Shown here piece after piece: positions 6,432-62,595 of a DNA stretch of 64,000 bases. A program made the position numbers and the translations under genes. The stretch comes from Candidatus Thorarchaeota archaeon (GTDB lineage: Archaea > Asgardarchaeota > Thorarchaeia > Thorarchaeales > Thorarchaeaceae): the NCBI GenBank assembly GCA_046482545.1, contig JAWOEX010000013.1:32001-96000 (forward strand), written 5' to 3'. Numbering within the stretch: position 1 is the first letter of the stretch; each line of letters begins with the position of its first letter. Under the pieces are notes generated by a model. That model was not told the DNA's origin. It searched no databases and saw nothing but the letters and a program-made list of their open reading frames with translations.

Positions 6432-6476
6432 TGAACCATCTCCTTACTAGTAAGCTCTTGTAATGCTTTCGATTTA

Positions 6477-6526
6477 TAACCTGTTTCTTATAGTTGAGTG
6501 AAACCAACTGAGCCAATCTGTTTTCA
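6477..6526 (-). mobile_element. remnant of dispersed element (copy A, conserved end plus hairpin)
   Basis: TAACCTGTTTCTTATAGTTGAGTGAAACCAACTG matches the end of the 29300-29860 element; 6545-6565 weakly resembles the opposite end. Confidence 0.75.
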
Positions 6527-12589: not shown

Positions 12590-12594
12590 ATATG

Positions 12595-12655
12595 TAACCT
12601 GTTTCTTAAAGATGAATTCACTCTGTTCTTTGTTGTGAGGGATATTTGTTCCTCG
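12595..12655 (-). mobile_element. short remnant of dispersed element (copy B)
   Basis: TAACCTGTTTCTTAAAG matches the conserved element end; the rest is degenerate. Confidence 0.6.
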
Positions 12656-28818: not shown

Positions 28819-28909
28819 GGCCTCCTCTAGGGTTGGTGGTCCGACCCCATGGGCTTCAAACCCATGATGGCACAAGCCATAAGTGTTCGATTCACTGAGG
28901 GGGCCGCCA
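28819..28909 (+). tRNA. selC: tRNA-Sec (UCA), 9/4 fold, encoded CCA
   Basis: 9-bp acceptor GGCCTCCTC/GAGGGGGCC; 7-bp D stem GGGTTGG/CCGACCC; 6-bp anticodon stem CATGGG/CCCATG with loop CTTCAAA; variable arm TGGC/GCCA; 4-bp T stem AGTG/CACT; G discriminator. Confidence 0.97.
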
Positions 28910-28946: not shown

Positions 28947-30215
28947 ATGAGATTTGAAGGAAACAAAACCCACCGCGGCAGCTATTCCCCTTTTGATAGA
29001 CTGGCAGAGAGGTATGATGACTGGTTTGAAGACGATGGACGCTTAATCTTCTCTACTGAAGTGAAGGCCTTCTACACCCTGCTTCCAATGTTGCCTGAAC
29101 CATGGCTCGAAATAGGCGTTGGCAGTGGACGTTTCGCTAAGGCATTAGGAATTAGACTCGGTATTGATCCTTCCGGAAAATTGCTGGAAATGGCGAAACA
29201 AAGAGGAATAGATGTCATACTTGCGCGGGGCGAGGATGGGGTATTCAGGAATGAAACTTTAGGTACAGTGTTTATGATTGTTACTATCTGTTTTCTAGAT
29301 AACCTGTTTCTTACAGTTGTAGCAACTGCATGAAACTTCTGTGTTCCACCCCTCCCCTGCCAGCGTCGCCGCTCCCAAGGCTACCCAGTGGCTCCTTGAG
29401 TCAGCAGGGGCTTTGTCCGCGTTCACCGGAATAGGATTCCTCCCGCGGTCCTGGCTTCTTTCTCCTGTCGTTGTCCCGGGTCATCACTCCGGCGACAGCG
29501 AGGTCTTCCACAGTCTTTGCCACGGCGTGGTCATGATCACCCACCTCAGCTTTGTCACCGCCGCTGAGGAGGTCCATTACGGACAAGGTGAACAGCCGCG
29601 GACTCTCCGGAACCTGATGGGTTTCCTTTGGTGGAGAGTGAGGACTTCTGCTTAGTGGAACGAGTCCACCTCACAGCCTTCGGGGCTGAGCGCTTCTCCC
29701 GTTGGGGAGTGGCTCACCGCCCTAGTCCTACTAGACCGGACTCTCGTACCAGGCCTAATAAACTCCCCTCCAAGGCTACAATAGTGCTTGCAGGAAATGT
29801 TACAGTTATTTTACACTTTTCCACTCGCATTTTTTTAGGATTTTGTAAGATTTCTATCCCTCTAGACTCCCCTATGAAGGTTCTACAGGAGGCTAATCGC
29901 ATCCTCTCCCCAGGAGGTAGGCTTGTCCTTGGGCTGGTCTTACGAGAAAGCCCATGGGGCAAATACTATCGAGAAAAGAAGGCGGATGGACACCCTTTCT
30001 ATGATTATGCCACCTTTTCCACTATCAATGATATCACAACTTTGCTTCAAGAAACGGGGTTTATTATTGAGAAGACTGTATCAACACTTTTCCAAAAGCC
30101 AGGGAATGTCAAGCATACGGAAGAGCCCCGCGAAGGGTATTCACCAAAGGCGGGTTTCACCGTTCTCGTTGCAGCAAAGCGGGATAATGATGCTCCTGAC
30201 GGGAAAGAAGAATAA
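28947..30215 (+). pseudogene. class I SAM-dependent methyltransferase interrupted by a 561-bp element
   Basis: LEIGVGSGRF motif; removing 29300-29866 joins TICFL to DSPMKVLQEANRILSPGG, giving an intact 233-aa ORF. Confidence 0.9.
29300..29860 (-). mobile_element. full-length non-autonomous structured element (copy C), TSD TCTAGA
   Basis: TCTAGA at 29294-29299 and 29861-29866; homologous along its length to 51592-52145 and 62043-62595. Confidence 0.93.
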
Positions 30216-34106: not shown

Positions 34107-34409
34107 TGACCTATTCCTTACAGTTGAGTTATTTTAACCCACTTGAAATCTCTGCGTTTTCCTTCCCCTCCCAGCGTCGCCCCCGAAATCTCCTTCGGTC
34201 TCTGAGTTGGCAGGGCTTTCTCTACGTTCATCGGGATGATATTCCTCCCGCAGTCCAAAATTCCTGCTCCTCACATCATCCCCCGTTCTCAGATCCGGTG
34301 ATAGTGAATTCTTCCACGTCTTCACCACGGCCTACAGATAATCAACATCTCAGCTTTGTCACTATAGCTGAGAAGTCCATTTGGACATAGTGAACAGCCG
34401 CGGACTCTC
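34107..34409 (-). mobile_element. truncated element (copy D)
   Basis: TGACCTATTCCTTACAGTTG end, CTCAGCTTTGTCAC..GCTGAG hairpin, GTGAACAGCCGCGGACTCTC shared with copy C, after which homology stops. Confidence 0.88.
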
Positions 34410-34505
34410 GATAGTCTCAAGGAGGCGATAAAGAACGCAATTTTCATGACTGACCACTAGCCCCCCTGCCTGATCTTGGGGGAAAGATGTTCGGTGGTGC
34501 GACTA

Positions 34506-35105
34506 CTAAGATTCCATGTTGTGTTCAGATTGTTCCAAACAAATCATTTCTCTTACTACAGCTTGCGGGATGATGTTGATGTGCTCATAATAGGCTTCAC
34601 CCGAATCTAGCTGTGTTTTGGAACGACCAATTTTGACAAGACCGTCGCTTTTGCCTAAGAGATAACCTGCTATGTATTGGAGGGGAACTTGGTGCTTGTC
34701 TGCGTCCTCCTTGGTCATCGCGCAGCATTCGACACCAGCACTTTCAAAGACCACTTCGACCATTTCATGCTCTTTGCAGTGGTCAATGCGATCTAGTTCC
34801 CTTATCCTTTTGAGCTGGTCCTCCCCCTGTATTCTCTGAACGAGTGACCTGTCATAATGGAATGGGTCATCTCTCATCTTGTGTATCGAAGGAGCCAAGT
34901 ACACAGTTCGCTCTTTGACCTCCTCAACTTGGTCACCACCCGAGTCCACAAACCGCTTCTCATTGCTTTCACCAATGACATAGCGAACGTGGTGATGTTT
35001 TGCATCTACTGTTTTATCCCCTTTGTCTTCTTCGCCCTTTACACGCAAACGAGTGTCTGTCGTGATTTCTATTGCTGAGAATGGATTTCTGAATATTTTA
35101 CTCAT
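34506..35105 (-). CDS. hypothetical protein
   Basis: GGTGA RBS, 199-aa ORF. Confidence 0.7.
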   Translation of the reverse strand: MSKIFRNPFSAIEITTDTRLRVKGEEDKGDKTVDAKHHHVRYVIGESNEKRFVDSGGDQVEEVKERTVYLAPSIHKMRDDPFHYDRSLVQRIQGEDQLKRIRELDRIDHCKEHEMVEVVFESAGVECCAMTKEDADKHQVPLQYIAGYLLGKSDGLVKIGRSKTQLDSGEAYYEHINIIPQAVVREMICLEQSEHNMES

Positions 35106-45909: not shown

Positions 45910-46060
45910 TGACCTGTTTCTTGCAGTTGAATGAGCTCGTGACTGCATAAAACTTCTGTGTTTCACCCTTCTCCTGCCCAGTGTCACCATCATGCCGAAG
46001 TGCCAACCTCAGTTGAATAAAGGCTTTGTCCACATTCCCGGGAATGCTGTTCGTTCTGCA
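45910..46060 (-). mobile_element. truncated element (copy E) abutting the vhuU RBS
   Basis: TGACCTGTTTCTTGCAGTTG...AAACTTCTGTG...GGCTTTGTCC shared with copy C. Confidence 0.85.
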
Positions 46061-50727: not shown

Positions 50728-51651
50728 ATGGATTTGACAGTTGTTGGTCATCTTAGTAGGGACCTCATCATTACGCCAGAGACTCAGAGGGAGGCTATTG
50801 GTGGAGGAACCGCTTATGCTATGCTAGGACCATCGATTGGAGCGAAAACTAGGATAGTCAGCAAGGTGGGTCAAGATTTCGAAGAAGAATATCTGAGCGT
50901 GTTGCGCAATTCAGGTGTGGATTTATCTGCTCTCCACCAAAAATCAGGCAAATCGACCAGATTTGTGAATCGATATGACGAAGAAGGTAATCGTAGTCAG
51001 TACGTGGAGTCAGTAGCACCTGATATAAGTGGCAATGACGTTGATGAGTCAATTCTCTCAGGAGTAATCGTCCATTGCTGCCCTCTTCTACGCGAAATCG
51101 AGACATCACTTCTTAGGCAAGCTGCAGAATCTGCTTCATTAATCTCGCTTGACATACAGGGATACCTTCGCAAGATTCAGGAACAGGAAGTGCGGCTGAC
51201 AGATTGGCGAGACAAGAAGGAAATCCTTCCCCTTGTAGACATCGTAAAGGCTGATGAAAGAGAGCTTGAAGCCGCAACAAGTATCGCTGATGAACAAAAA
51301 GCGGCAGAACACGTCATGGAGTTTGGACCATGCGTGCTTCTTGTAACACGCAACCGTCGAGGATCAACTATCTACACTCCGGCAGAGGCTGTGGATATTC
51401 CAGCGATTCCAGCTGAGGAGATTGTGGATACGACAGGTTGCGGTGATACCTATTCCATTGGCTTTCTTGTGGAATATTCCCGAACCGGTGATTTGTATTA
51501 TTCAGGAATCTTTGCAGCCGCATGTGCATCTTACAATTTGGAGACAATTGGCCCGTACGGGATGCCTTCACGTCAGGATGTAGAATCAAGAGTACGCGAG
51601 TTTTACAAAAATCCTAAAAAATCTTGGTGCAGAAGTGTAAAAGATCTATAA
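50728..51651 (+). CDS. PfkB-family carbohydrate/nucleoside kinase (C-terminus altered by insertion)
   Basis: GGGTAY, DIQG, VDTTGCGD. Confidence 0.92.
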   Translation: MDLTVVGHLSRDLIITPETQREAIGGGTAYAMLGPSIGAKTRIVSKVGQDFEEEYLSVLRNSGVDLSALHQKSGKSTRFVNRYDEEGNRSQYVESVAPDISGNDVDESILSGVIVHCCPLLREIETSLLRQAAESASLISLDIQGYLRKIQEQEVRLTDWRDKKEILPLVDIVKADERELEAATSIADEQKAAEHVMEFGPCVLLVTRNRRGSTIYTPAEAVDIPAIPAEEIVDTTGCGDTYSIGFLVEYSRTGDLYYSGIFAAACASYNLETIGPYGMPSRQDVESRVREFYKNPKKSWCRSVKDL

Positions 51652-52145
51652 GATTTCCTGCAAGCCCGTTTCGGGCAACAAACGAGGGGAGTTTATTAGG
51701 TCTAGTACGGAACCCGGGTCCAGTAGGACTAGGCAAGTGGGCTAGTGCTGTGCACGACGCACGCGGCCGAAAGCTGTGAGGTAGACGCGTTCCACTAAGC
51801 AGAAGTCCTCACTCTCCACACAGGAACTTCATCAGGTTTCGGAGAGTCCGCGGCTGTTCGCTTTGTCCAATTGGACCTGGCCAGCTTTGGTGACAAAGCT
51901 GGGCAGAGTGATAATAACCCCGCCGTGGCAAAAGCTGTGGAAAACCTCGCTGTCCCCGGGAGTGATGTGTCCGGGTCAGGACAGGAGACAGAAGCCGAGA
52001 CCGCAAGAGGGACCGTGTCCTGATGATGGCGGCCAAAGTCCTTGCTTGGCCGGGGGTAGCGCCCTGGTATAGTGGTGACACTGGGCAAGGGAAGGGTGGA
52101 ATACAGGAGTTTCATGCAGTTGCTAAAACTGTAAGAAACGGGTTA
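51592..52145 (+). mobile_element. full-length non-autonomous structured element (copy F), TSD TCAAGA
   Basis: TCAAGA at 51586-51591 and 52146-52151; excision restores pfkB ending ...DVESRIGEYL*. Confidence 0.92.
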
Positions 52146-52218
52146 TCAAGAATTGGAGAGTATCTGTAGGCCAAACAGAAGTTTTTTGATATCTCTTGCC
52201 CGTGGGCGTTACGTACTG

Positions 52219-54539: not shown

Positions 54540-54977
54540 TAAGAGTTCTTGCAGCTTGCTGTTGTTTTTTGAAAGACAAAATGCGATTGATAAGAGTTTA
54601 CTGGACTGTGCCGTGGTGGTTGTATGGGGACTTCCTCACACACATGCCGCAGCTTGAACAGAGATCTTCGACTATGGTCGGTAGCTCACCTCATCTGTAT
54701 GGACCTTCTCAGTAGCGACGAGAAGGCTGGGTTCGGTGATCATGACCACGCCGTGACAAGAGCGGCGGAACAGCTCGCTGTCACTGGAGTGATGACCCGG
54801 AGCACGACAGGAGCAGGAAGTCTGGACCGCGGGAGGAATCCTATTCCAGTGAACGCGGACAAAGCCGCTGCTAACTCAAACGCTGAGAAGTACTTTGAGG
54901 GGATTAACGCCAGTAGAGAAGGAGTGGAACACAAGAATTTCCTCGGTTGAATTCACTCAACTGTAAGAAACAGTTTA
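54540..54977 (+). mobile_element. diverged element (copy G)
   Basis: GGTGATCATGACCACGCCGTG, GGACCGCGGGAGGAATCCTATTCC and CAACTGTAAGAAACAGTTTA shared with copy C; left boundary approximate. Confidence 0.88.
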
Positions 54978-54978
54978 T

Positions 54979-55395
54979 ATGGGAAAACATTATCAACACA
55001 CATTTCCCCTCCCTAAACCCGGGGAGTTAAATGCTATGAGAAGAACAGAGAATCCACAAACAATTGGAGAAATCATTAAGAAACTGCTTCAAAGTGACTT
55101 TTCTGAAACTGAAGTAAAACATTGCAGAGATACCATTGATAGAGCGTGGTATCTTTGCGAGGAACGGAATGGCGGCTACCATCCGACAGCACAGGAGTTG
55201 TACGGATTGTTGAATTTCTTGAATGAGAGAATTATTCCCGCCATTAGGAGCCAATCTCATGACAATGAATCTGCACGTAAATGGCTTGAACAATATGTTG
55301 AGAATAACCTTGGAGCGGATACTTCAGGGTACATCATTGAGCGTAGGCAATTCTCAGAGCCTTCCGTAGATATGAATGCAATCCGAACGATGTAG
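54979..55395 (+). CDS. hypothetical protein
   Basis: 138-aa ORF directly after the element end; start may be ATG 55036. Confidence 0.55.
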   Translation: MGKHYQHTFPLPKPGELNAMRRTENPQTIGEIIKKLLQSDFSETEVKHCRDTIDRAWYLCEERNGGYHPTAQELYGLLNFLNERIIPAIRSQSHDNESARKWLEQYVENNLGADTSGYIIERRQFSEPSVDMNAIRTM

Positions 55396-59896: not shown

Positions 59897-59979
59897 CGGG
59901 GTAGCGATACTGACTGGATAGCATGAATATCCAAAATTCTACGGAGTTTCGCATCCACTCAACTGTCAGTAATAGGTCA
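59897..59979 (+). mobile_element. highly degenerate element end (copy H)
   Basis: CGGGGTAGCG...GGAGTTTC...CAACTGTCAGTAATAGGTCAT parallels the end of copy F. Confidence 0.55.
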
Positions 59980-60026
59980 TCTCACAAAGAGATATTAGAC
60001 AAGGTGCTTCGCTTTAGGTAAGTCGA

Positions 60027-61853
60027 GTGAAACATCAATCATACTGCCGTTGGACATCAATAATGACAAGTCAGCTATCAAACACCGACCCGCTCACTCT
60101 TAAAGAATTTGAATGCTTTAGGGATATTGCTGATACTCTCCAACTGGCTGTTGTTGCTCTCGATACTGGTTTTAACTTAACATATGCGAACACAGCTGCC
60201 CTGGATCTTCTTGCAGTGGATCATGTTCGCTCCGGAATGCATGTCAGCGATGTTGTTCCGTCCGAGCAAATGGGATTGGTTCGCAGGGGACTTGAAGAGC
60301 TGACAACTGGTGCAAAGCCCACTGGTCTTTCACTTCGGGCCATCAGGAAAGATGGAGTTCATATTCCCATCGAAACCTACGCACAGCCAATTGTTTCGGA
60401 TGAGGGAGCAGAAGGATTCTTGGTTTATGCCATTGATATGACACACAGGGCCAGGGTAGAAGAGAATCTGAGAGAACGACAGCAGTTCTTTGAGCTCATA
60501 GTGGAGCATTCACAATCGGGTATTTTCGTGATCGATGACGACTACAAATTTGAGTATCTTAATGATCAACTGGCTGATATCGTTGGCAGGACCCGTAGCG
60601 AAATGCTTGGCCATGATTTCAGAGATTTCCTTCATCCTGATAGCTTGGAGCTTGTTACTGAGAGATACCTTCGAAGGCAACGAGGGGAGAAAGTGCCACA
60701 AACATACGAATTCAAGGTTCTTCATAGTGATGGCACTCCTAGAGACATTCGGATTACAAGCACAACGATGAAGGGGCGTGACGGGAGTATTAAGACTGTT
60801 GCCCAAATCATAGATATAACAGAAACAAAGGAGAGCAAACGTGCCCTAGAAAGAAGCGAAAGGAAATACAGAACCCTCGTGGAGACCATGGAAGATGGGT
60901 TGGGTATTGATGATGAGAATTCTATAGTAACTTATGCAAATGACAAGCTGCTGAGTATGATGGGGCGGACTTGGGAGGAGGTGGTTGGTCATGGGACTCA
61001 CAAATTGTTCCATAGATGGACCCCCACCATGGCTAAGAAGAAGATTAACGGGCGCAGGAAAGGCGAGACCGAGCATTATGAAGCCAATCTGGTTCACAAA
61101 AGTGGCAAACTCATTCCGGTCATGGTTTCTGCTTCACCCCTCTTTGACGAGAATAATGAATACCAAGGCAGTTTCGCAATTATCACCGATATATCTGATT
61201 TGAAAGAGGCTGAAGGTGAGGCGCGGTTTCTTCTGGACCTTCTCCTGCATGATATTGGTAACCAACTCCAGCTGATACTAGCCGGAGCTGACCTTTGTCG
61301 GGCAGACTCACCTCCTGAACTCATCAGGAAGGCACGAAACTACGTAAATAATGGAGCCAATAGATGCCTTGAGCTAATAACCAAAATTAGAAATGCCGAA
61401 GCCGCTAAATCCGAACCCCTCAAACCTGTGGATTTGATTGATGTTCTAGAGTCAGAAATAAGACTAATTACCCGGGAATATGATGTAGAGGCACAAACCG
61501 ATAATCTGCCGGATGAAGTTATTGTGAAGGCTGATAGCGCTCTTTCCCATCTCTTATGGAATCTCTTAGAGAACGCCGCCAAACACAATCAAGATAGAAA
61601 TAGAAGAATCTGGGTGACGTCCGAACGAACAGAAGATCGTTTTATTTTACACATAATGGATAATGGTCCCGGTCTTGAAGACGAGAAGAAATTTGAATTG
61701 TTTGATTCTGAACGCAGATTCGGTGGTGTCGGCCTCCATCTAGTCAATAGACTGGCTCACAAGTATGATGCTCATCTGAGTGTGGAAGACAGGGTAGAAG
61801 GAGAACCAAGCGAGGGATTGAGGGTGAGTATAGTCTTTGCCCTCCCCAACTAA
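60027..61853 (+). CDS. multi-PAS sensor histidine kinase (tandem paralogue)
   Basis: Same architecture; shares GHDFRDFLHPDS and LLDLLLHDIGNQLQL with 58008-59828. Confidence 0.92.
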   Translation: MKHQSYCRWTSIMTSQLSNTDPLTLKEFECFRDIADTLQLAVVALDTGFNLTYANTAALDLLAVDHVRSGMHVSDVVPSEQMGLVRRGLEELTTGAKPTGLSLRAIRKDGVHIPIETYAQPIVSDEGAEGFLVYAIDMTHRARVEENLRERQQFFELIVEHSQSGIFVIDDDYKFEYLNDQLADIVGRTRSEMLGHDFRDFLHPDSLELVTERYLRRQRGEKVPQTYEFKVLHSDGTPRDIRITSTTMKGRDGSIKTVAQIIDITETKESKRALERSERKYRTLVETMEDGLGIDDENSIVTYANDKLLSMMGRTWEEVVGHGTHKLFHRWTPTMAKKKINGRRKGETEHYEANLVHKSGKLIPVMVSASPLFDENNEYQGSFAIITDISDLKEAEGEARFLLDLLLHDIGNQLQLILAGADLCRADSPPELIRKARNYVNNGANRCLELITKIRNAEAAKSEPLKPVDLIDVLESEIRLITREYDVEAQTDNLPDEVIVKADSALSHLLWNLLENAAKHNQDRNRRIWVTSERTEDRFILHIMDNGPGLEDEKKFELFDSERRFGGVGLHLVNRLAHKYDAHLSVEDRVEGEPSEGLRVSIVFALPN

Positions 61854-62042: not shown

Positions 62043-62595
62043 TAACCTGTTTCTTATAATTTCGCCAACTGCTTGAAACCTCTGTGTTACGCCCTTGCCC
62101 TTCCAGTATCACCGCCCCCAAGGCTGGTCAGTACCCCTTGTCAGCAGAGGCTTTGTCTGCGTTCACTGCAATAGCATTTTCCTGCGCTCAGGACTTCCCT
62201 CCCCTGTCATAACCCGGCATATCACTCCCGTGACAGCGAGTTTTTCCACAGTCCTTGCCAGGCGTGGTCATGATTACCCGACTCAGCTTTGTCACCGTAG
62301 CTGAGAAGATTCGTGTGGACTTGGTGAACAGCCGCGGACTCTCCAGAGACCGATGAATCTCTCTTGGTGGAGAGTGAGGACTTTTGCTTAGAATGACGCG
62401 TCCTCCTCACAGATTTCGGCCGCGTGCTTCGTACTACTGCACTAACCCCCTTGCCTAGTCATACTGAAGGCGAGTTCCGCAGTAAGTCTAATAAATTCCT
62501 CTCGTATTAGGATATTGACGGGCCTAGAGGAAATCTTACAAATGTTTTACACTTCTACACCCGGACTATGTAGGATGCTGTTAAATTTTGGTTGA
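62043..62595 (-). mobile_element. near full-length diverged element (copy I)
   Basis: Collinear with copy C from TAACCTGTTTCTTA to AGGAAATCTTACA...TTTTACACTT...TAGGAT; TSD not recoverable. Confidence 0.9.

Follow-up and report, generated by a model that had tools for sequence, protein, structure and literature searches.

How does a repeat of 560 bp without any protein gene come to be dispersed in dozens of copies over an archaeal genome, and why does its interior look like a structured RNA? The question is raised by a locus in a window of 64,000 nt (the whole stretch of DNA analysed here) from Candidatus Thorarchaeota archaeon, assembly GCA_046482545.1, contig JAWOEX010000013.1, positions 32,001-96,000 of the forward strand. 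The repeat, hereafter the mini element, occupies positions 51586-52151 (+) of that window. The explanation that we favour, with a probability of about 0.6 for the whole, combines a deletion derivative of an 8-kb parent, an RNA served by TnpB, a Cas1-fold mobiliser and core exchange.

The element and its copies

The 3.05-Mb genome holds 103 matches to the element, of which about 37 are near-complete and 75 extend to the right end. In the window, three copies are near-complete and another three are partial (Table 1). Homology among copies begins near 51590 and ends at about 52150. The original prediction placed the start at 51660, some 70 nt to the right of the true start at 51586/51592. Intact copies share the layout flank-TCNNGA-N9/10-TYTTACA...TGTAAGA-N9-TCNNGA-flank, the extreme termini being variable over 9-10 nt. 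Shorter copies of 160-430 bp, devoid of much of the scaffold, are also present, some of them with matching hexamers.

Several copies are peculiar. A class of about 290 bp comprises G000:C10:14852-15144, C22:210907-211207 and L122, the two G000 copies having in common an internal deletion that removed most of the scaffold. At G000:C20:181316-182445 two mini elements stand back to back with a single TCAAGA hexamer common to both, and at C9:359587 another left end lies inside a mini copy. Short remnants, reduced to the right end, are found at window positions 6474-6501, 12592-12619 and 59953-59980. The window also encodes a selenocysteine tRNA (28819-28905).

Table 1. Features of the mini element at 51586-52151, of its surroundings and of the other copies in the window.
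Feature	Position	Strand	Basis or remark
Left copy of duplicated target hexamer TCAAGA (consensus TCNNGA)	51586-51591	+	single copy left at empty site
Left end, GA-N9-TTTTACA	51592-51674	+	70-79% identity to left ends of 8.2-/8.3-kb parents
TTTTACA, inverted partner of right-end motif	51601-51607	+	within left end
Two more TGTAAGA-like repeats	51636-51642, 51647-51653	+	within left end
Deletion junction and decayed tnpB codons just past RuvC-III	51675-51723	+	weak protein match, 44% over 43 aa, E 0.007
Predicted omega-RNA scaffold, about 420 nt	51724-52146	+	fourfold third-position identity, fold z, intact pairs
Broken TnpB C-terminal tail remnant, overlapping the RNA	51767-52023	+	protein match
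ACTCTCC/GGAGAGT hairpin, inner stem variable in sequence	51811-51847	+	folding across copies
ATAACC, upstream half of long-range pseudoknot-like helix	51914-51919	+	covaries with right-end hexamer in parents
Terminal stem-loop GTTTC/CAGTT...AACTG/GAAAC	52109-52139	+	overlaps right-end DNA motif TGTAAGA, 52130-52136
GGTTAT, downstream half of long-range helix, predicted scaffold 3' end	52141-52146	+	parent covariation
Right copy of target hexamer TCAAGA	52146-52151	+	junction comparison, empty site
Predicted flank-derived guide, host DNA	52147-52166	+	start inferred from scaffold end, +/-2 nt
Host pfkB-family kinase gene, last five codons replaced through insertion	50728-51651	+	empty-site comparison
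Second near-complete copy	29300-29856	-	genome search
Third near-complete copy	62043-62591	-	genome search
Partial copy, 3' half	54679-54977	+	genome search
Partial decayed copy	34108-34517	-	genome search
Partial copy, right end	45911-46059	-	genome search

Parent elements and their TnpB

The same genome contains two complete parents (8.24 and 8.31 kb), which are delimited by the ends of the mini element and by a hexamer that matches on both sides; an intermediate deletion of 1.8 kb is also present. They contain a giant gene, tnpB and a small ORF only, in the order left end, giant gene head-to-head with tnpB, right end. Aligned with them, the mini element consists of the parent left end joined to tnpB from just past RuvC-III through the right end (75-89% identity for this latter part). 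The translation of 51823-52020 aligns at 82% identity with residues 494-559 of the contig C20 TnpB (E 2e-30), a stop and frameshifts lying upstream of this tail remnant. With its 560 bp, the mini element derives by deletion from an 8-kb Thorarchaeota element; it is non-autonomous, and it keeps both DNA ends together with the RNA-constrained 3' part of tnpB. The original prediction, in which internally deleted tnpB elements had retained a left end and an RNA scaffold over the 3' end of the gene, was right on this point. The shared protein-like tail that it had spotted is real and follows the RuvC-III NADxNG motif in the intact parents, and full-length genes for the TnpB that it supposed to act in trans are present elsewhere in the genome. 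The mini copies are mosaics, with about 25% divergence between copies.

Six TnpB-like frames are present in the genome, several of which are full-length tnpB genes. Of the 36 genomes of the family, 29 encode close relatives of the protein, the named ones being from Thorarchaeota. The aspartates of RuvC-I and RuvC-III are conserved. Because the canonical glutamate of RuvC-II is a glycine, cutting would rest on an alternative, conserved glutamate located further on; a similar rearrangement of RuvC-II is predicted to be active in PMC10691335. Parentage in IS200/IS605, with its Y1 transposase, was considered and rejected: the sole Y1 (HUH) match in the genome is a broken, truncated fusion away from any tnpB, a Y1-bearing parent is missing, and the hexamer flanks both sides of the element. 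The family belongs not to IS605 but to the aCas1-TnpB type; its ends have dyad symmetry, and TCNNGA is duplicated.

Variant loci also deserve mention. At L019:8510-10326, at the end of contig C34, a tnpB of the family is preceded by an AbiEi/AbiEii toxin-antitoxin pair and the giant gene is absent. The frame at G000:C28:236401-237306 (L015) is chimeric, with an AsnC/Lrp-like N-terminus, assigned by reading the sequence, followed by the RuvC half of TnpB; it is either a fusion or a misassembly. A tandem pair of tnpB genes follows one giant gene at L056:11145-15159.

A tail of tnpB conserved as RNA

Over 23 parent genes, identity at fourfold third positions climbs from 0.30-0.36 in the core of tnpB to 0.66-0.77 from 15 codons past the NAD motif onward, and amino-acid identity drops at the place where it climbs. 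The onset of this constraint coincides with the start of the well-conserved part of the mini element (about 51724), while the parental counterpart of 51675-51723 displays no RNA constraint. The reading frame of the tail is retained in just four of 43 minis. As judged from sequence comparison, the tnpB tail is conserved as RNA, not as protein.

Folding points the same way for the plus strand of 51724-52146, with a z of -2.99 against shuffled sequences, the minus strand being no better than its shuffles (z -1.14). The hairpins listed in the original prediction are present in the copies. That made of ACTCTCC (51811-51817) and GGAGAGT (51841-51847) is found across copies, and its inner stem folds in 58 distinct variants with a mean z of -2.19 against shuffles, 86% of them below -1. 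The exchange announced for this inner stem holds for the copy at 62 kb (AGAGA/TCTCT); at 29 kb the pair given as GGAAC/GTTTCC reads GGAAAC/GGTTCC. CCAGC/GCTGG alternates with CTCAGC/GCTGAG, and the terminal CAGTT/AACTG stem comes in two loop classes. The arm that follows the stop has a mean fold z of -2.87.

A long-range pairing of 6 bp, ATAACC/GGTTAT, changes on both sides across parents (ATGATC/GATTAT, CCGACC/GGTCGG, AAGACC/GGTCTT); 23 of 43 parents have it without a mismatch, a number that kinship inflates, and shuffling the partners gives 7.9. A pseudoknot at the end of the scaffold is a general feature of omega RNAs (PMC10690162). The covariation that the original prediction called for is modest, with five pairs at E<0.05 in a phylogeny-aware all-pairs analysis, two of which belong to the predicted fold; further canonical pairs sit just under the threshold. 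Since the mini copies are made of mosaic haplotype blocks, the all-pairs approach is limited, and the third-codon-position test together with the 6-bp pairing makes stronger evidence. Pairs supported by the parents are intact at 98% in the copy at 51586-52151 and at 95% across copies.

Three properties of an omega RNA are found together here: overlap with the 3' end of tnpB, extension to the right end and a 3' pseudoknot. Conservation stops at the element boundary, with variable flank beyond. Searched against Rfam at gathering scores, the element gives nothing, and only the tRNA-Sec scores in the window. We infer a scaffold of about 420 nt, a guide that would begin at about 52147 and a TAM close to RNWT, a motif that TTAT, at the filled right junction, does not fit.

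Mobility, target site and candidate mobiliser

Removing the 560 bp in silico restores a pfkB C-terminus colinear with that of two congeners, and in a strain 97-98% identical the contigs skip exactly 560 bp at this site; the insertion is, for these two reasons, recent and precise. Assemblies break at these repeats. In the same close strain, 93 other bases replace window positions 54558-55035, in the region of a partial copy (54557-55036), and a diverged stretch of 92 bp is found at 60000-60093, near a right-end remnant.

The target consensus is RNW-TCNNGA. The base three positions before the hexamer (the R of RNW, termed "-2") is a purine in 30 of 33 targets and T in none, and the right end of the element carries a T at that very position; the mirror position, to the right of the hexamer, has no base bias in the 33 targets. 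The two NN bases are equal across both junctions in 41/57 and 44/57 cases, against 20 and 23 expected, provided that two left spacings (9 and 10 nt) are allowed, a single fixed spacing blurring the signal. When each copy is compared with the one closest to it by left end, NN agrees in 21 of 31 cases (5.5 expected), with 13 agreements when the neighbour is chosen by right end and 9, not significant, by the middle. The core thus appears to follow the lineage of the element ends, a pattern that leans on one AA clade and on kin that are not independent; an ordinary duplication would not produce it. In general the duplication does not exceed 6 bp: agreement stays at chance level at position 7 and from position 9 on, with a slight enrichment at position 8, and a few copies show junction matches of 8-12 bp. 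The duplicated length is 2-6 bp, and as TC and GA are nearly fixed, 2, 4 or 6 duplicated bases are indistinguishable.

Joined element ends would give a dyad around NN. Transposition may then proceed via a circle, with a junction TGTAAGA-N9-TC-NN-GA-N9-TYTTACA set against an RNW-TCNNGA target and a preference for targets having the same NN. Core matching through a circular intermediate is what we infer from the NN pattern, and it agrees no less well with a serine recombinase than with Cas1. That the process would be a conservative core exchange on a circle rather than a gap-filled duplication is put forward tentatively, at a little under even odds.

What could catalyse it? The giant gene of the parents (1410-1963 codons) has no significant Pfam match and adjoins tnpB in 27 of 43 relative loci. 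A model of its first 270 residues (pLDDT 86.5) was compared with known structures, and the top 12 matches were all Cas1, with Z from 13.3 to 9.0: VIA came first (Z 13.3, rmsd 3.5, 176 residues aligned), the casposase reached 10.6 and the next unrelated protein 8.4. The likeness is confined to the helical catalytic domain, and the beta domain found at the N-terminus of Cas1 is absent; E68, H163, D170 and D173 are invariant. Further on come PD-(D/E)xK motifs, assigned from invariant motif residues, then a RecA-like fold, the fold search of that model giving only RecA/Rad51/KaiC-like matches. The Cas1 domain was recognised only through predicted structure: it is invisible to Pfam (PF01867 on the genome, all of Pfam on the giants) and missed by NCBIfam and PDB searches with an alignment, and Foldseek alone remained above E 0.02. 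Searches of the genome itself gave no gene for a resolvase, an IS607 TnpA, a tyrosine integrase, a large serine recombinase or IS110, and in two congeners they likewise gave no resolvase, large serine recombinase and IS110 genes. Over the whole of this archaeal genome (G000, 99% complete), no Phage_integrase (PF00589) match and hence no XerA-like gene was found.

The Cas1-fold protein of the parent, acting in trans, would on this evidence be the probable mobiliser of the mini element, if by a narrow measure. A conjunction of two bolder proposals must be considered doubtful: that a Cas1-fold domain without beta domain or polymerase carries out a 2-bp-core exchange, and that a TnpB with an omega RNA of about 420 nt serves dozens of minis in trans.

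The main competitor leaves the mini element and its RNA as they are and attributes mobility to an IS607-type serine recombinase working in trans, either unassembled or recently lost, the Cas1-fold giant being a passenger. A dyad around a 2-bp core, inheritance of that core and subterminal repeats are traits of serine recombinases. Furthermore, four more Thorarchaeota genomes have an IS607 tnpA adjoining the same giant gene, and complete sister loci pair tnpA with a different TnpB of 720-760 aa and with GG-type ends. Intact aCas1 is therefore no proof of a transposase role, since in this sister lineage the same giant gene, its Cas1 residues intact, stands beside an IS607 recombinase. However, there is no resolvase-family match in G000, G001 and G002 (draft genomes, 96-99% complete), although the mini element moved recently; no tnpA model matches in G000, none is found by tblastn in 43 parent loci, the core is variable and GG in none of 33 concordant junctions, and the ends are unlike those of the tnpA-bearing sister. 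A serine recombinase seems to us possible, and on balance unlikely. In the three-gene elements themselves (L158-L162), which have GG-type ends, IS607 tnpA and the aCas1 giant are accompanied by a TnpB of 720-760 aa whose 3' tail is very short.

What the RNA might do

Under the preferred explanation, transcription of the mini element, possibly as read-through of the host gene, would yield an RNA that is bound by TnpB from a full-size copy. The scaffold would end at GGTTAT, the next 15-20 nt of flank serving as guide. The complex would cut the empty allele left by excision, where a TAM of about RNWT is available that is absent at the filled right junction, and repair from a filled chromosome copy would restore the mini element. 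We lean slightly towards this chain of events, taken jointly.

Contig depth over the element, with sequencing runs of small word share left aside, amounts to 68 and 347 in two metatranscriptomes against 0-7 in most other bins; the same measure in DNA runs gives 198 against about 18 and 65 against about 6, and the contigs give no start, end or strand. The excess above background is weakly larger in RNA than in DNA runs, though contig depth is no measure of expression. A scan with a sigma-70 promoter model, bacterial and unsuited to an archaeon, gave chance counts.

Could DNA ends alone matter, as in a plain MITE, the scaffold being a silent hitch-hiker with a structure inherited or refreshed from parent tnpB loci? 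Mutations private to single copies, compared within the same conservation class, are as frequent at paired as at unpaired sites (2.3% vs 1.8%, p 0.19), and 107 of the 128 that fall at pairs break pairing. To this are added the 160-430-bp copies without much scaffold, some with matching hexamers, the lack of a demonstrated archaeal promoter, and mosaic copies, which may inherit structure from parents by recombination. Against it, the dominant class (37 near-complete copies) retains the RNA-constrained span and 95% of pairs despite about 25% divergence, the -2 target bias fits self/non-self discrimination, and RNA depth shows its weak excess. Pairs that are not protected from private mutation, yet are 95% kept, indicate selection on spreading lineages or recombining parents rather than on resident copies. 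A plain MITE must be regarded as improbable, much on a par with the serine recombinase.

The original prediction went further, seeing in the copies a dispersed library of guides; read strongly, this would be a library that the host keeps for regulation or defence. To be sure, each of the roughly 75 matches reaching the right end has a different flank, the three flank sequences quoted do exist in the genome, and there are several full-length tnpB genes. The guides, however, consist of host flank and have no further exact match in the genome (for 5 of 41 there is one site with a single mismatch), paired sites show no depletion of private mutations, and copies decay neutrally and are polymorphic between close strains. 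The idea of a library useful to the host finds no support in these observations, and we consider it very improbable. Guides that fit only their own empty site, with neutral decay of single copies, speak for selfish retention, of the kind that has been shown for IS200/IS605 (PMC10055086).

Equally remote is mobilisation by a 305-aa DDE transposase (PF01609), with TCNNGA as an ordinary 6-bp target duplication: its genes are intact in all three congeners and its terminal repeats contain CTGTAAAA, like the mini's motif, but its element has perfect terminal repeats and, at one copy, a 9-bp duplication, the mini termini are variable over 9-10 nt, a duplication would not follow lineage, and the parents carry no DDE gene. 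The 985-bp DDE element is found at L170, L173 and L176, and the likeness of CTGTAAAA to the mini's subterminal motif is probably coincidence.

Significance and comparison with known systems

Both gene-less omega-RNA minis and aCas1-TnpB loci are already known and published. The present analysis contributes the connection of the mini element to its parent, together with precise ends, the target, the empty allele, the limits of the scaffold and the inheritance of the core. The aCas1-TnpB loci have been catalogued, and the relevant portions of that literature describe no bench tests. The mini family brings together precise ends and a target motif, an empty allele that occurs in nature and a donor reduced to the minimum, along with a predicted scaffold end and TAM and the sharp prediction that the NN core follows the donor. 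Asgard Cas1 as a transposase, and its chemistry, thereby become directly testable: in the full-size parent a Cas1-like protein stands where an ordinary transposase is expected, and if the reading of Cas1 core exchange is true, the 560-bp mini would be a ready minimal substrate on which Asgard Cas1 could be tested biochemically for the first time. The case has a bearing on the way in which Cas1, of CRISPR adaptation, and TnpB, of type V interference, could have come together in one mobile element.

Loci of TnpB associated with aCas1 are reportedly the subject of work by Makarova and colleagues in 2020. In Altae-Tran et al. (PMC10691335), the section on these loci distinguishes the groups Cas1H-Asgard-1 and -2. 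As far as that section goes, the family shares with them an Asgard host, a Cas1-fold partner of tnpB, flanking repeats and a GTTCACTCA motif downstream of tnpB, seen here in parents and in minis with a long loop; the copy at 51586-52151 has a short loop without GTTCACTCA. The same section describes no gene-less minis, target motif or end structure, and suggests as guide the variable stretch before GTTCACTCA, whereas here this stretch is one arm of the terminal stem, the scaffold continuing to GGTTAT with the predicted guide in the flank.

Gene-less, omega-RNA-encoding PATE-like minis of IS200/IS605 have been published (Meers et al., PMC10055086). Like them, the mini element has no protein gene, keeps both ends, encodes a predicted omega RNA that would need TnpB in trans, and would be retained selfishly through cutting of the empty site. 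Unlike them, its parent is without Y1 and its ends are dyad-symmetric with a duplicated hexamer, those of PATE-like elements being asymmetric hairpins without duplication. Likeness to IS607 lies in a two-base core at both junctions, subterminal repeats and an omega RNA with a 3' pseudoknot at the right end. By contrast, IS607 requires a GG core (PMC10690162), whereas here the core is variable and never GG, lies within a fixed TC..GA, and no serine recombinase was found. At about 420 nt the predicted scaffold is about twice the 221-bp right end used in the Clostridium IS607 IStron (PMC10690162).

Sister aCas1-TnpB elements provide a last point of reference. At L012:10229-10303, L054, L055, L056, L057 and L092 they abut the 3' end of tRNA-Gly(TCC); just past the stop of the giant gene, L054, L057 and L092 have a second 3' half of the tRNA, a duplicate that is partial or diverged (33 bp exact in L054). 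In L067, L065 and L069 the right end is followed by a piece resembling the 5' part of a tRNA, and a 22-bp direct repeat brackets the L067 element. The placement at tRNA-Gly(TCC) can be read as casposon-like or att-like targeting. With respect to casposons (PMC9939771), the differences are a lack of polB and of a conserved terminal inverted repeat at the very ends, the presence of TnpB, 2-6 bp duplicated instead of about 15 bp, and a Cas1 domain without beta domain, fused within a protein of 1400-2000 aa. Yet, as in casposons, a Cas1-family protein is the sole candidate integrase, direct repeats mark the junctions, and sister elements are located at tRNA genes.
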